Of a stretch of 64,000 nucleotides of DNA, positions 14,973-50,918 are shown piece after piece. The number at the start of each line of letters is the position of its first letter. Positions within the stretch are counted from its first letter, which is position 1. Where the stretch lies: contig JAFTPS010000013.1 of the NCBI GenBank assembly GCA_017463185.1, positions 3,826-67,825 of the forward strand. The letters run 5' to 3'. The DNA is from Alphaproteobacteria bacterium (lineage in GTDB: Bacteria > Pseudomonadota > Alphaproteobacteria > Rs-D84). The notes beneath the pieces were generated by a model. It did not search any database and had not been told where the DNA came from. It was given only the letters and a program-made list of their open reading frames with translations. A program made the position numbers and the translations under genes.

Positions 14973-15218
14973 TTGTTCTATCTCCTGTGTTTTTTGATTA
15001 AAAGCAAAAAACCGTCAATTTTTTTGACGGTCAGGAGGTTAGTAACAATCCATAGAATTGCGTGCTTATTTATGTATATCGCAACCCTCCTGACCGATGG
15101 TCAGGAGATTTTTTCGTCACAGACAATAAAAAAAGACGCGTTTTTGCGCCATTTTAAGTCTTGTTTGTTGACGCTATGGCAGAGGTTACTACGCCTCATC
15201 GTCAGAATACCTGACGAC
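14973..15218 (-). promoter_or_regulatory. Conserved structured 5' leader, copy A (homolog of 44365-44603)
   Basis: The minus-strand core at 15005-15115 is about four-fifths identical by eye to 44477-44588. It has a CUCCUGACC-nnn-GGUCAGGAG hairpin, a downstream CCUCCUGACCGUC, and a terminator hairpin with a U-run. Confidence 0.55.
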
Positions 15219-31467: not shown

Positions 31468-31623
31468 GTCCGTGGGACGATAAACAAAGATTTGACTTTT
31501 GTCGTGTTTTGTATAAAATTATGCGGCAAAATAAAAATAGCCCACGATAAAAAAATCTTGGGTTTGGGTATCGGGGTGCGGGTGGACTCGCGCTTCGCAG
31601 TTAAATAAAAAGGAAAATAAAAA

Positions 31624-32001
31624 ATGGCACGTATAGCAGGTGTTAACATTCCGACAGAAAAGCGCATTGAAATTGCGTTGCAATACATTCACGGTATTGG
31701 GCCAGCAAAAGCGGCACAAATTTGTGAAGCGTTGAAATTAAAAGACGGTTTGCGCGCAAAAGATTTGACGGACGCGGATGTTATCAAAATTTCTAATTAC
31801 ATAGAAGAAAACTTTAAAGTAGAAGGTGATGTTCGTCGTGAAGTTACAATGAACATTAAACGTCTGCAGGATTTGAAAACCTATCGCGGTATTCGTCATC
31901 GTAACCGTTTGCCGGTTCGTGGTCAGCGTACACAGACAAATGCTCGTACCCGCAAGGGCAAGCGCGTGGTAGTCGCTGGTTCCGCAACCAAGGGGAAATA
32001 A
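31624..32001 (+). CDS. rpsM: 30S ribosomal protein S13
   Basis: [26 protein letters not shown]...[22 protein letters not shown]. Confidence 0.98.
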
Positions 32002-47867: not shown

Positions 47868-47941
47868 TGGTTGGGGCAGCTGGATTCGAACCAACACTGA
47901 CGGAGTCAGAGTCCGGAGTTCTACCATTAAACTATGCCCCA
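47868..47941 (-). tRNA. tRNA-Gln (anticodon CUG)
   Basis: 74 nt. UGGGGCA acceptor (U1-A72 as in bacterial tRNA-Gln), anticodon loop CUCUGAC, GGTTCGAATCC T-arm, encoded CCA. Confidence 0.9.
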
Positions 47942-48106
47942 ATGCCCGGCTATTATATGCATGACGATTACATTTTGCAAGCACAAAATTTAACACTTTT
48001 CACGGAAATTCACTAAACCCAACGGACACGACAAATTATTCACTGCTTTCCTGTGGATTTTTTGAAACCAACCCCTATGCTGAATTTATAACCAAAAGGA
48101 CATTCA

Positions 48107-48253
48107 ATGACAGAAAAATTACTCACCCCAAATCAACTGGCAGAAAACCTTGGGATCAAACCCTTCACCCTGTTGCAATACAGAATGAATGGCAAAGGGC
48201 CAAAATATATCAAATTGGGACACCTGGTGCGAAATAGGACTCGCCCCCAGTAA
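48107..48253 (+). pseudogene. AlpA/excisionase-type HTH gene, apparently truncated (48 codons)
   Basis: MTEKLLTPNQLAENLGIKPFTLLQYRMNGKGPKYIKLGHLVR then a premature stop. The normal family continues for about 15-20 more aa. Confidence 0.5.
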
Positions 48254-48341
48254 CAACATGTCGCACTGGTTCACGTCTGCCGGCATAGAACCCCAGCAAG
48301 AACAGAGCTGGAACGATTAAAAGCACGACTCTGTCTTTCAT
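48210..48341 (-). CDS. Possible 43-aa hydrophobic peptide (not in track)
   Basis: MKDRVVLLIVPALFLLGFYAGRREP.... The SD GGGAG 3 nt upstream is sequestered in the hairpin ACUCCC...GGGAGU (48342-48387). Convergently overlaps the alpA-like remnant. Confidence 0.25.
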   Translation of the reverse strand: MKDRVVLLIVPALFLLGFYAGRREPVRHVVTGGESYFAPGVPI

Positions 48342-48629
48342 CGACTCCCACATAAAAGACCACTCAACAAAGTGAGTGGTCGGGAGTTGAACAGTTCAAG
48401 AACAGAACTCCGTGCTTTCGGGATAAATCCCTATGGTATGGCAACGGCATCCCGACCAGAGTCGGGACATTAGAAGTTAAAGTTCTTGGGTGTTCAAACC
48501 CGTTTACACTTATAATGTCGCTTGTGCAATAAAATGCACAAGAACATTCTACTATAAAATATTAAAAAATCACCCCTGACATATTTTCTATTTTTATCAA
48601 GATTTCTTTGGTTTTTATTCATATAAAGT

Positions 48630-48658
48630 TTGTTTTTACCCCGTTTTTATGATACAAT
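48630..48658 (+). promoter_or_regulatory. Promoter (TTGTTT-17-TACAAT with extended -10 TG)
   Basis: ttgttt at 48630-48635, tgatacaat at 48650-48658. Confidence 0.5.
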
Positions 48659-48663
48659 ATTTG

Positions 48664-48848
48664 CCGACACAGGCGACTGTGTTGGGCGTTACAACCCATA
48701 ACATTAGGTGTCCGTGGGGACACAAAAAACCTCTAACCTTTGGTTGGAGGGCGGCGAATATACCGAATAAGCCCGCTATTTCCTAATGTTATAGTTGTAA
48801 ACCTCCAACCACCAAAGAATGCCTGTGTGGAATTAAACGGAGAGTAGC
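48664..48848 (+). promoter_or_regulatory. Highly structured leader RNA (multi-helix junction), riboswitch or attenuator candidate
   Basis: 9-bp hairpin with GCGA tetraloop (48664-48685). About 20-bp closing helix 48688-48708/48782-48802 enclosing three hairpins. Downstream ACCUCCAACC (48801-48810) can alternatively pair with 48742-48751. Confidence 0.4.
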
Positions 48849-49118
48849 ATGACAAAACAGAAACAACCCAGCAAAACAATGACCCTGCCAAAAACTCTGT
48901 GGGGATTTTATTTTAAGCACGCAATTCACGGTAATGGCTGGATGATTCTGGCAGGTGCAATTTTATCATTTGTTGTTGCTTTTGACCGAGTATTACAACC
49001 ACTTATTCAAAGTTGGACGGTGGCAGAGTTGCTGGAAGAACTGCGACCCGCGATTGAGATAATACCAGACAATCACATTAAACTGCGAATGATGGGGGGT
49101 ACGTACGGCTCTGCGTAG
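48849..49118 (+). CDS. Hypothetical 89-aa membrane-protein fragment (possibly the N-terminal piece of a transporter)
   Basis: LWGFYFKHAIHGNGWMILAGAILSFVVAF looks like one TM segment. Short and isolated, so a gene remnant is likely. Confidence 0.3.
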   Translation: MTKQKQPSKTMTLPKTLWGFYFKHAIHGNGWMILAGAILSFVVAFDRVLQPLIQSWTVAELLEELRPAIEIIPDNHIKLRMMGGTYGSA

Positions 49119-49194
49119 GCCACCTGAACAAGCAAATACGAATTCTGGAACAAGCACTCGGCAAACCAACATTTGTAGATATAAAGGCATAGAT

Positions 49195-49731
49195 ATGACA
49201 GACAAACCAAAAACACTTTATCATGGATCGCAACATGAAATTACAGATGGTTTTATCAGAATGAAACCTGGACGTATTGACGGTATGCGCACACCAATAA
49301 CTGCGGCTTTTGCAACCCCAAGTTACAGACACGCACGATTGTATGCCGTCATGCGAATAATTTCTAATGGATGGAAAGCGCCCACAGAAATAGACACACT
49401 GTATGTTGAATGTATAAATCCAAATATTACAAAACAAAAGGCGTATGTGTACGAAGTTTCTTCGGACGGTTTTATCCCAGATGGCGATGATTATTATTGC
49501 CTGAACGATGTGCCAATCTTGAAAACCTATGAAATTGATGTTATGCAAGAAATCAGAAATGGGAACATCAAGGTATATGTCCTGCAAGATAAAGTAAATT
49601 TTGACGGTCTGTCAGATGAAGAAAGTCTGGCTTTGTGGCAAAAAACAAAAAGGACCGGACATTTTGAACGATATATTCCAGAAGAACCCAAAAAAACTTT
49701 AACCTTTTTTGATAAAGGTCTAGATAGATAA
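49195..49731 (+). CDS. Hypothetical protein, YHGS-motif family, paralog 1
   Basis: 178 aa. KTLYHGSQHEITDGF...AAFATPSYRHARLYA...AYVYEVSS...IKVYVL aligns with the next gene. Confidence 0.55.
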   Translation: MTDKPKTLYHGSQHEITDGFIRMKPGRIDGMRTPITAAFATPSYRHARLYAVMRIISNGWKAPTEIDTLYVECINPNITKQKAYVYEVSSDGFIPDGDDYYCLNDVPILKTYEIDVMQEIRNGNIKVYVLQDKVNFDGLSDEESLALWQKTKRTGHFERYIPEEPKKTLTFFDKGLDR

Positions 49732-49747
49732 ACCTAAGGAATATCTT

Positions 49748-50353
49748 ATGAAGAAAGATGCATTTGAATATGGATCCAAACAAATAGAATCACGCACGTT
49801 TTATCATGGTTCCGCAACAAAAATAGACGGTGATTTTTTAGAACCCAAAGAACAATTTAACAGTGTTCAAAACAAACGTGTTGTCGGTGCATTTGTTACA
49901 TCAGATGCAGATTATGCAAAATTCTTTGCACTGGTAAAATGCTTGTCTGGTCGCGGTCAATGTAAGTTGCATGGCAAGAAAATATTCTTTGAACGAATAT
50001 CTGACAGTATAAAGCCAGAATTCAACTTGTATACAGTCGTCGAACAACCAGACGAAAAATTTATTCACGACAAAGGCACAGAATATTATTCGCCAACACC
50101 AATCAAGATATCCAAGCGGCAAACTTGTAATACGGTTGATGAAATAGAAAAGTTGGGGTATGAAATATACGTGCTGAACGAGCCATTAAAAAGCAAACCA
50201 AACAAACAGTCTAATGACAATTCACACGTTCAATCTGAAATGCACCAGGCGATTGCAAACGGTGCGTATCATCGTGTAGATGTTGCGGATTTAATCAAGC
50301 AACAAAAATCAAAAAGTATATTTCAGAAATTATTTAATTGGCAAAAAGATTAG
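49748..50353 (+). CDS. Hypothetical protein, YHGS-motif family, paralog 2
   Basis: 201 aa. RTFYHGSATKIDGDF...GAFVTSDADYAKFFA...NLYTVVEQ...YEIYVL. Confidence 0.55.
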   Translation: MKKDAFEYGSKQIESRTFYHGSATKIDGDFLEPKEQFNSVQNKRVVGAFVTSDADYAKFFALVKCLSGRGQCKLHGKKIFFERISDSIKPEFNLYTVVEQPDEKFIHDKGTEYYSPTPIKISKRQTCNTVDEIEKLGYEIYVLNEPLKSKPNKQSNDNSHVQSEMHQAIANGAYHRVDVADLIKQQKSKSIFQKLFNWQKD

Positions 50354-50354
50354 G

Positions 50355-50396
50355 AACTGTCTTTGAATTTGATATAAATAGATTTGCATAAAGGAA
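50355..50396 (+). repeat. Direct repeat copy 1 (about 43 bp)
   Basis: aactgtctttgaatttgatataaatagatttgcataaaggaaa versus 50882-50924 aacagtatttgagtttgatataaacagatttgcataaaggaaa. Confidence 0.85.
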
Positions 50397-50402
50397 AACA
50401 AT

Positions 50403-50918
50403 ATGAACGTGAAAATCAGAAATGCGGTGCCAGATGATGCGGCCGCAATACAAAAGATTATTGCAACCGGATATCGGCGGTCTTTTGCAGGCCTGCACAG
50501 TCCAGAATACCTGGAACAGAAGATTCAGGAATATTTAAGTCCGGCCAGAATTGAAAAAATGGCAAACATAATCCGCAATGAAAATTCTGTGAACATTGTT
50601 GCAGAAAATGAAAACGGTGTCGTCGTTGGCTCGGTCGGTGGAATGCAGGACGACAATAACAACTGGGAACTGATTGCGTTATACGTGGACGAAAATGTAA
50701 TTGGCGATACCAAGTTTGCACTATCACTGGTTCAAGAATTTGCCAAACGCATCAAGGATGCCGGTGCAACAACATTTACCACAGGCACATTGACCGGCAG
50801 TCGCGTATGCCGGCTGTACGAATTACTGGGTGGTAAAAAGATAAAAGAATATATCAACGAACGGCGCGACAACGTATCAGAAACAGTATTTGAGTTTGAT
50901 ATAAACAGATTTGCATAA
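50403..50918 (+). CDS. GNAT family N-acetyltransferase
   Basis: 171 aa. IRNAVPDDAAAIQKI...LIALYVDENVIGDTKFALSLVQEF...YELLGGKK. Confidence 0.7.
   Translation: MNVKIRNAVPDDAAAIQKIIATGYRRSFAGLHSPEYLEQKIQEYLSPARIEKMANIIRNENSVNIVAENENGVVVGSVGGMQDDNNNWELIALYVDENVIGDTKFALSLVQEFAKRIKDAGATTFTTGTLTGSRVCRLYELLGGKKIKEYINERRDNVSETVFEFDINRFA

Follow-up and report, generated by a model that had tools for sequence, protein, structure and literature searches.

We analysed a window of 64,000 nucleotides (the whole stretch of DNA under study; contig JAFTPS010000013.1, positions 3,826 to 67,825) from an Alphaproteobacteria bacterium of the Rs-D84 lineage. Rs-D84 is an uncultured order whose genomes are mostly <1 Mbp and display reduced metabolism (PMC12306168). 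At positions 48630-48848 the window carries a structured leader, which very probably belongs to a conserved family of cis-regulatory attenuation leaders. A sequence-only reading of the same DNA had suggested a riboswitch-like element at this place, and our results support that suggestion, as a resemblance rather than as a demonstrated identity. The case for the family is built on hundreds of diverged homologues, on strand-specific covariation in every helix of a pseudoknotted core, and on three short segments that compete for pairing next to a terminator.

Hundreds of diverged copies share one architecture

The family was scanned with a two-block DNA pattern, TGGTTGGAGGG-N35-65-AACCTCCAACC. 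It matched at least 120 stretches in metagenome contigs (rumen, human and animal gut) and at least 120 stretches in reference, one-genome-per-species contigs, so that looking for the motif in related genomes yielded hundreds of homologues. From the pattern matches listed we drew a sample of 220 unique full copies, which fall into 186 clusters below 88% identity. Candidatus Enterousia, Alphaproteobacteria, Rickettsiales, Proteobacteria/Pseudomonadota or unclassified-bacterium metagenome-assembled genomes (MAGs) account for 78 of the 80 genome matches listed, and several genomes hold multiple copies among these matches, at 4-5 loci each. Two genome matches carry Bacteroidota labels, one a Bacteroides fragilis bin (L142) and one a Muribaculaceae bin (L154); we suspect that both are mis-binned contigs. 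The whole architecture, with promoter, core and terminator in the same order, is common to all but one or two of the pattern matches that were read, and the centre is never reversed among them. Exceptions such as L029 look like chance matches.

A covariance model (R1) was built from 46 copies, one row being the window sequence and the other 45 coming from other loci. It has 155 positions and 37 pairs, and describes the nested helices P1, P2a, P2b, P3, P4 and P5 together with a CCUCCAACC tail. The window matches R1 at 48665-48813 (+) over model positions 1-155 of 155 (133.1 bits, E = 4.5e-33), and the homologue in front of an intact operon, L011, scores the same. The model revealed two further copies in the window, one at 44382-44565 (+; 53 bits, E = 3.4e-12) and one at 15034-15218 (-; 86 bits, E = 7.6e-21). 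Both display clean terminators and a long P3 insertion. A BLAST and repeat search of the window found no further copies at the sequence level; these two were recovered by the covariance model alone.

Copies also occur in tandem. Contig L214 (2359-3023, -) holds three complete promoter-leader-terminator units, separated by spacers of 60-130 nt with no open reading frame (ORF) between them, in front of one signal-peptide gene. Furthermore, four IMG/VR contigs, which are classed as viral, carry the leader (L255, L256, L257 and L258). In the two that were examined, L255 and L257, the leader adjoins an EcoRI-like adenine methylase and a PLD-family nuclease, a setting that looks like a restriction-modification (RM) island, not clearly like a phage.

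Fold of the window copy

The window copy begins with a -35-like hexamer, TTGTTT (48630-48635, +), 17 nt before an extended -10 box, TGATACAAT (48650-48658, +). Both were read from the sequence, and they agree with the promoter described before, TTGTTT-17-(TG)TACAAT. Conservation among close homologues sets in just 3' of the -10 box, and the transcript probably starts at about 48664-48666. P1, a hairpin of 9 bp (48664-48685, +), follows as CCGACACAG-GCGA-CUGUGUUGG, evident both in the sequence and in the minimum free energy (MFE) fold. The earlier reading had recorded this GCGA-capped hairpin correctly. Its GNRA character holds for the window copy but not for the family, in which the sequence of P1 is variable and the loops of other copies differ.

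The core 5' strand, GGG-CG-UUACAA-CCC, occupies 48684-48697 (+). Its ends form contact S1, GGG (48684-48686) with CCC (48695-48697), and the P2a 5' strand (48689-48694) lies within the S1 loop; C48687 is the pyrimidine of contact T1, whose partner is G48775. Next comes the P2b 5' strand, AACAUUAGG (48700-48708, +), which pairs with 48782-48790. Three hairpins succeed it on the plus strand: P3, UGUCC-GUGG-GGACA (48709-48722), placed by the fold and by model alignment; P4 (48730-48750), which joins segment 1, CCUCUAACC (48730-48738), to segment 2, GGUUGGAGG (48742-48750); and P5 (48752-48773), a short stem with an A-rich GAAUA / GAAUAA internal loop and a variable tip. Behind P5 stands CGC-UAU (48774-48779, +), of which C48776-U48779 make up the 5' strand of helix X. 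The continuous 3' strand (48782-48800, +) then supplies, in order, the P2b 3' strand (48782-48790), the X 3' strand AUAG (48791-48794) and the P2a 3' strand UUGUAA (48795-48800).

Immediately downstream lies segment 3, CCUCCAACC (48802-48810, +), a perfect complement of segment 2 and thereby the rival of segment 1. In the window its possible partners are the 3' arm of P4 and the 3' arm of P1. The expression platform (48811-48838, +) is degenerate and has no U-run terminator. It includes GCCUGUGUGG (48821-48830, +), which is complementary to the 5' arm of P1. The ribosome binding site (RBS), GGAGAG, is found at 48839-48844 (+), where the earlier reading had put an RBS at 48838, and is followed by an ATG at 48849; both are unpaired in the MFE fold.

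The MFE of the window leader is -70.2 kcal/mol, compared with -47.8 +/- 4.6 kcal/mol for 200 dinucleotide shuffles (z = -4.86), none of which folds as well. The minus strand folds less well (z = -3.84). A helix of about 20 bp had been proposed to close three internal hairpins. The pairing itself exists (48689-48708 with 48782-48800), but not as one continuous rod: it is better drawn as P2a and P2b joined via the pseudoknotted core.

Covariation in the helices and in the pseudoknotted core

Covariation was examined in an alignment (A5) of 107 model-aligned copies from reference genomes. Standard pairs fill 96.1% of the paired cells, versus 69.3% after shuffling, and compensatory changes affecting both partners are seen in 28 of the 37 pairs. 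The alignment has a covariation score of 0.667, against 0.185 when shuffled (0 of 500 shuffles reach the observed value) and at most 0.083 for slid partners. The signal extends to every helix. P1 varies in sequence, with compensatory changes in all 7 modelled pairs; all 6 modelled pairs of P2b covary, as do all 5 pairs of P3 and all 3 modelled pairs of P5; and in P4 the variants of segment 1 are almost all wobble-compatible with segment 2. Covariation is thus very strong throughout the fold that had been read from one sequence. Without recourse to the model, the exact reverse complement of the P2a 4-mer is found on the 3' strand of 193 out of 196 copies, and 36 distinct 4-mers are represented. 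Among paired cells, G-U combinations number 315 and A-C combinations 19, which assigns the structure to the sense-strand RNA and not to duplex DNA.

Three contacts outside the model, S1, T1 and X, covary as well: 95.2% of their cells are paired, versus 83.3% shuffled, with a covariation score of 0.373 versus 0.18 (0 of 500 shuffles reach it). S1 pairs RGG with CCY around the P2a 5' strand, and its outer pair is GC 52, GU 25, AU 23. T1 joins the Y of GGG-Y-GU to the R of C-R-C just 3' of P5 (UA 65, CG 31, AU 4). Helix X joins C-W-A-U, which follows C-R-C, to A-U-W'-G just 5' of the P2a 3' strand, with a middle pair that is UA 71, AU 28. In a divergent subfamily S1 reads GAG:CUC and X reads GCA:UGC. 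The three contacts assort independently of one another, each changing state again and again between nearest neighbours. RNAalifold, applied to a MAFFT alignment of 143 sequences in which the variable helices are poorly aligned, recovered only S1 and the helix between segments 2 and 3.

Because S1, T1 and X cannot be drawn nested together with P2a and P2b, we considered that they might form an alternative conformer. This is disfavoured by two observations. In 91 of 107 copies the 3' strands of P2b and X directly adjoin, and a longer P2b goes with a longer linker between the X 5' strand and the P2b 3' strand: ~1 nt when P2b has 6 bp, ~3.7 nt when it has 10 bp (rho 0.53, p 6e-9). Abutting strands and linker scaling are what an H-type pseudoknot requires, and we therefore read the core as stacked. 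Judged from covariation and linker lengths, the basis of this three-dimensional arrangement, P2b, X and P2a would stack on one continuous 3' strand while S1 and T1 would meet them at a single junction point. The core spans ~150 nt with many conserved unpaired bases. Its centre (P4 and P5) is the most conserved part of the element, and conservation in segments 1, 2 and 3 greatly exceeds that in the other helices.

Promoter, terminator and competing segments

Of 195 copies, 179 have a -10 box that matches at 5 or more of 6 positions; its location peaks 28-29 nt before the RGG anchor of the core, and 99 copies carry the TG extension. Among the 179 copies with a good -10 box, 85 also show a -35 match of at least 4 of 6 at a spacing of 16-18 nt. 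The constant spacing between -10 box and core puts the start of the RNA at P1.

At the other end, an intrinsic terminator overlaps segment 3 in at least 144 of 220 copies. This count is conservative: it requires, beside a T run, a hairpin of 5 bp or longer whose 5' arm starts at A9/C10 of AACCUCCAACC. In most members the last 2-4 nt of segment 3 are the start of the terminator, and the terminator lies directly before the RBS.

Segment 2 (GGUUGGAGG) makes 7-9 pairs with segment 1 (CUCCAAC), often including wobbles, and 9-10 perfect pairs with segment 3 (CCUCCAACC). The alternative upstream partners that had been noticed for the downstream segments of the window copy are thus real, and they match a three-segment competition coupled to the terminator across the family. 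In both other window copies (15034-15218 and 44382-44565) the three segments read CUCCUGACC / GGUCAGGAG / CCUCCUGACC, and in one copy of the L214 tandem they are UCUCC / GGAGA / UCUCC. Such a joint change of all three segments is what competition between the 1:2 and 2:3 pairings predicts.

The exporter clade, that is the leaders found before an ABC exporter gene (the window, L001, L005, L011, L143, L182 and L257), departs from this scheme. These leaders, the window copy included, have a 4-6 bp CCAC/GUGG stem and no U run. In place of the terminator they hold ACC..GCCUGUGUGGAAUUAGACGGAGAG, and GCCUGUGUGG there is complementary to the 5' arm of P1. Relatives that share this P1 retain a normal terminator, with AACCGUCCGC..GACGGUUAUUUU at that place.

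Two attributes associated with riboswitches can be compared with these data. A covarying, aptamer-like structure resides in the 5' untranslated region (UTR), and across the family the expression platform is mutually exclusive with part of the aptamer, an arrangement that the window copy does not display in the same form. Attenuation by a leader peptide was ruled out, as no ORF is conserved: an ATG ORF of at least 8 codons preceded by a Shine-Dalgarno sequence occurs in 48 of 196 copies, at no preferred position. Likewise, no partner for the switch segments in trans was seen in the window, where neither GGUCAGGAG / CUCCUGACC nor GGUUGGAG / CUCCAACC occurs elsewhere.

Genes behind the leader

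An ORF on the same strand follows 202 of 220 copies, and 170 of these ORFs start 25-99 nt after segment 3; 18 copies have no ORF within 400 nt. The largest BLAST cluster of downstream proteins (72 members) consists of signal-peptide proteins, and the next (34 members, plus 8 in a related cluster) of small XRE-type helix-turn-helix (HTH) proteins. Pfam searches of 148 downstream proteins found Flg_new repeats in 23 and HTH_31, HTH_19 and HTH_3 in 15, 8 and 7; about 15-30 of the 148 match XRE HTH families. A few are RM or defence proteins (EcoRI methylase, HsdM, Mrr, UvrD, AbiEii), ABC proteins (two) or glycosyltransferases, and most have no Pfam match.

The two other leaders of the window stand before secreted proteins. 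The copy at 44382-44565 precedes a small secreted ORF and a 597-aa secreted protein, and the copy at 15034-15218 precedes a 210-aa Cys-rich signal-peptide protein (14972-14340). The 597-aa protein (44829-46622, +) has a signal peptide and many IPxxLFAG(I/V)xGAP-type repeats, with no significant Pfam match. Another protein of the window, of 1297 aa (39794-43687, +), has weak ankyrin matches. Both exemplify the unannotated surface or secreted proteins that accompany the leader family.

Genes of nucleotide second messenger metabolism were sought in 1.67 Mb of related loci. No GGDEF, EAL, HD-GYP or RelA/SpoT gene was detected by tblastn, a weak test on a small sample with approximate consensus queries. 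The same searches detected genes resembling CdaA/DisA_N, the cyclic di-AMP synthase, in L145 (2113-2466) and L037 (9994-10353).

A proposed model of attenuation and its effector

From these results, a sigma-70-type promoter starts the RNA at P1, and the RNA folds into a compact core in which P2b, X and P2a pair with one continuous 3' strand. S1 (3 bp) and T1 (a single long-range pair) lock the 5' strand as pseudoknots, with P3, P4 and P5 branching off the top. Segment 2 can pair either with segment 1, forming P4, or with segment 3, which follows the core directly. We propose that, with the core locked and P4 closed, segment 3 would be left free, the terminator would form and the gene would be off. 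Once segment 3 captures segment 2, the terminator would be weakened and RNA polymerase may read through. An effector would decide between the two states; our leading guess is a small molecule, an ion or a nucleotide second messenger, which would bind the core and favour termination. The exporter clade has replaced the U-run terminator with a segment complementary to P1.

Several points weigh against this model. The regulon points to no metabolite: it comprises surface proteins with Listeria-Bacteroides repeats, XRE HTH proteins, restriction and defence proteins, and mostly unannotated secreted proteins. The joint change of the three segments is seen in three variant copies, two of which are paralogues. 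In nested-only energies the state with segments 2 and 3 paired lies on average 6.8 kcal/mol above the one with P4 and P2, and nested-only models never include the 2:3 pairing in the MFE fold. Such energies ignore pseudoknots; the direction given to the switch here, and even spontaneous switching, are therefore tentative. The exporter clade has no U-run terminator, and the pairing of its downstream segment with P1 is invariant and so shows no covariation. Finally, alignment A5 was fitted to the nested structure of the model, and exact matches to segments 2 and 3 were the criterion by which the family sample was chosen.

A small-molecule effector is a guess we favour with some reserve, and somewhat short of an even chance. 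It is conceivable, and we offer it tentatively, that the leaders constitute a new riboswitch class with a double-pseudoknot aptamer. Such a class would sense a signal that is either global and physiological or derived from the host (e.g. a nucleotide second messenger or an ion), with ~10+ copies per ~0.9 Mbp genome, and would control the variable surface proteome, XRE regulators and defence or RM islands. A regulon of this type would not previously have been tied to a riboswitch.

Should the novelty suggested by Rfam 15 and the searchable literature hold, the family is a large orphan class of riboswitch-like leaders with hundreds of diverged copies. Its hosts, Rs-D84 / Candidatus Enterousia, have never been cultured and have genomes under 1 Mbp, and the leader appears to gate, instead of a metabolic pathway, surface and secreted proteins along with small regulators and genes of defence. 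The identity of the effector would show how minimal gut symbionts time the display or change of their surface, and could enlarge the riboswitch repertoire by a new ligand or mechanism. The family also provides an annotation marker for promoters and regulated accessory genes in such MAGs.

Alternative explanations

The same RNA family and the same switch could instead answer to a macromolecule acting in trans, either an antiterminator protein, possibly lineage-specific, or an RNA. In that case the leader would be the tag of an accessory-gene regulon, as are RAT/ANTAR, T-box or NusG-paralogue-dependent leaders. We regard this as possible but rather unlikely. The downstream genes fit it, being accessory (surface, XRE, RM, defence) with no common pathway. 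The genomes are smaller than about 1 Mbp (PMC12306168); one global factor serving many leaders would suit genomes of that size. The far stronger conservation of segments 1-3 relative to other helices also agrees with a trans partner, but the three-way pairing constraint already explains that conservation. Moreover, the targets of protein-dependent antiterminators are usually short hairpins, whereas the core here measures 150 nt, contains two pseudoknots and has numerous conserved unpaired bases. Candidate partner sequences are absent elsewhere in the window, and no partner protein was identified.

An unlikely alternative makes each promoter-RNA-terminator unit primarily the gene of a separate ~190-nt small RNA working in trans, with read-through as a secondary event. 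The three tandem units of L214 with no intervening ORF would agree with this, and so would the 18 of 220 copies with no ORF within 400 nt, the window copy that is intact (133 bits) without functional cargo, and the occurrence of the same truncated allele on many contigs. Tandem arrangements, however, are known for true riboswitches. The gene count argues the other way, with a same-strand ORF behind 202 of 220 copies and 170 of these within 25-99 nt of segment 3. In the copies that were read, this gap holds the terminator with the RBS directly after it, leaving no room for a separate promoter; the downstream genes are therefore transcribed through the leader. No complementarity to a target was found.

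It is very improbable that the core is a putative ribozyme fold, self-cleaving or otherwise catalytic, rather than a sensor. A compact double-pseudoknot core with many invariant unpaired nucleotides, in multiple copies per genome beside accessory, defence and RM genes, would suit one, since small ribozymes occur in such gene contexts. The leader, however, has no Rfam match, including to twister, twister-sister, hatchet, pistol, hepatitis delta virus (HDV)-like, hammerhead or glmS ribozymes, and the coupling to a terminator together with the competition of three segments is the logic of an attenuator.

Finally, a repetitive DNA element that mimics an RNA fold (a miniature inverted-repeat transposable element (MITE), a Correia-like or repetitive extragenic palindromic (REP) element, an integron attC-like site or an invertible segment) is hardly credible. 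Long inverted repeats in many copies per genome, nearby accessory genes, a tRNA gene and an AlpA-like fragment, and a reverse strand that also folds well are all reminiscent of such elements, but the repeat, attC and inverton readings were rejected on strand asymmetry (G-U 315 versus A-C 19), on divergence (copies highly diverged within and between genomes, in 186 clusters below 88% identity, with helices still complementary) and on the fixed orientation to promoter, terminator and downstream ORF, with the parts in the same order in all but one or two of the pattern matches that were read and the centre never reversed among them. Integron attC sites have R''/R' (RYYYAAC / GTTRRRY) flanking a non-conserved centre and mark the 3' end of promoterless cassettes. 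The leader has arms GU-NNNN-AC / GU-NNNN-AAC, an upstream promoter of its own and, opposite to attC sites, a conserved centre (P4, P5), and was rejected as an attC site for these features, no search for an integrase having been made.

Relation to known elements

Rfam 15 (4227 models), run on the whole window at gathering thresholds, returned only two tRNAs and Alpha_RBS. The latter, the alpha operon ribosome binding site, lies in a ribosomal protein region (31568-31656, +) and scores 38.0 bits, exactly its gathering threshold. Positions 48000-49400 gave 0 matches at E <= 10, so the leader matches no known Rfam element, and twenty loci bearing the family gave only scattered unrelated weak matches at E <= 1. 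A T-box leader was rejected, with no match to RF00230 at permissive E-values and an unrelated regulon. Annotated phage and plasmid collections had no match to the leader. The literature, searched by sequence strings and in papers mentioning Enterousia, held nothing relevant, nor did the main text and the first 200 of 408 supplementary files of a catalogue of structured RNAs of the human microbiome (PMC8040213). The family may be present, unnamed, in some bulk catalogue. An attenuating, riboswitch-like leader is a known kind of element; the family, its pseudoknotted core and its accessory-gene regulon appear new.

Among known systems, the c-di-GMP-I/II (GEMM) riboswitches have much in common with the leader. 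They too have a promoter-proximal, covarying, aptamer-like core and a terminator that shares nucleotides with it, and they too occur in several to many copies per genome, upstream of surface, adhesin and secreted proteins and of regulators. Complete units in tandem, as in L214, are a further likeness; triple-tandem c-di-GMP riboswitches are known upstream of an adhesin gene. Unlike them, the leader family has no Rfam riboswitch match, and its regulon includes RM and defence genes.

Trp-type attenuators likewise use three consecutive competing segments to decide whether a terminator forms, and T-box leaders, too, form a family of many copies in which the switch sequence is conserved and the peripheral helices vary. 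The present family differs from both in having no conserved leader peptide, no T-box match and no regulon related to aminoacyl-tRNA, and in that part of a pseudoknotted core, not a simple loop, separates segments 2 and 3.

With H-type pseudoknot riboswitches such as SAM-II and preQ1-II, and with the double pseudoknots of glmS and HDV-like ribozymes, the core shares short helices that are coaxial on one continuous strand. Like these folds, it has linkers of 1-3 nt crossing a helix of 6-9 bp, and the scaling of linker length fits a crossing of the deep groove. In contrast to these pseudoknotted aptamers and ribozymes, its strand order is different, it is larger (~150 nt, with three extra hairpins) and it has no Rfam similarity. 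Correia elements and MITEs are also multi-copy intergenic inverted repeats with promoter-like or terminator-like features beside accessory genes. The leader family, unlike them, has strand-specific pairing, diverged and covarying copies, a fixed orientation and a conserved centre; it is not a mobile repeat.

The truncated exporter and the neighbourhood of the window leader

The leader of the window is followed by a chimeric ORF of 89 aa (48849-49118, +), made of the first ~59 codons of an ABC exporter and an unrelated tail. The ORF is identical to a protein from an "Alphaproteobacteria bacterium" MAG. Residues 1-59 match the intact 595-aa ABC exporter P0004, where similarity then ends, and DNA similarity between the window and the intact loci stops at 49025. 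In L011 the intact order is leader, ABC exporter, a 288-aa protein, two S41 peptidases and a His_Phos_1 protein. In the window other genes replace everything from about codon 59 of the exporter to the His_Phos_1 gene. The idea that the leader had lost its cargo is thus borne out, with an exporter truncated in the window and intact in related loci. Because the exporter is truncated, the window copy is a well-preserved leader whose cargo is gone while its core and promoter are intact.

The exporter is broken elsewhere as well. L001-L004 carry a frameshift at codon 146 (gene at 673-1113 in L001) and L005 (468-692) an internal deletion after codon 43, whereas L011, L143, L182 and L257 hold intact genes; the exporter gene behind the leader has been inactivated by separate events in different populations. 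The truncated allele of the window is present on many contigs. Leaders of the exporter loci are 85-99% identical to that of the window, and their differences include compensated ones: the long helix reads AACAUUAGG / CCUAAUGUU in the window versus UGUUUUCGG / CCGAAAACA in L001, L004 and L005, and the P5 pair C48755:G48771 becomes U:A in L001 and L005. We also considered that the leader travels with orthologues of the ABC exporter. An exporter of another genome with 58% identity (L014) has an upstream gap of 38 nt with no match to the model, and the leader is therefore not tied to the exporter gene family; together with the count of 2 ABC exporters among 148 downstream proteins, this rules that possibility out.

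The leader sits in a region that looks like a decayed island or a recombination hotspot. Upstream are a tRNA-Gln(ctg) gene (47868-47941, -) and a 48-aa HTH_17/AlpA-like fragment (48107-48253, +), and the chimeric ORF stands downstream. Starting with that ORF, the region 48849-50918 goes on with a weakly ART-PolyVal-like protein, a 201-aa protein of unknown function and a GNAT protein, which take the place of the L011-type operon. The stretch from the AlpA-like fragment to the promoter (48354-48620) includes a hairpin, GACCACUCA..UGAGUGGUC, that resembles a terminator on the minus strand, and a second hairpin, CUUGUGCA-AUAAAA-UGCACAAG. It also holds an imperfect direct repeat of 22 nt, 82 nt apart, and most of it is missing from L005.

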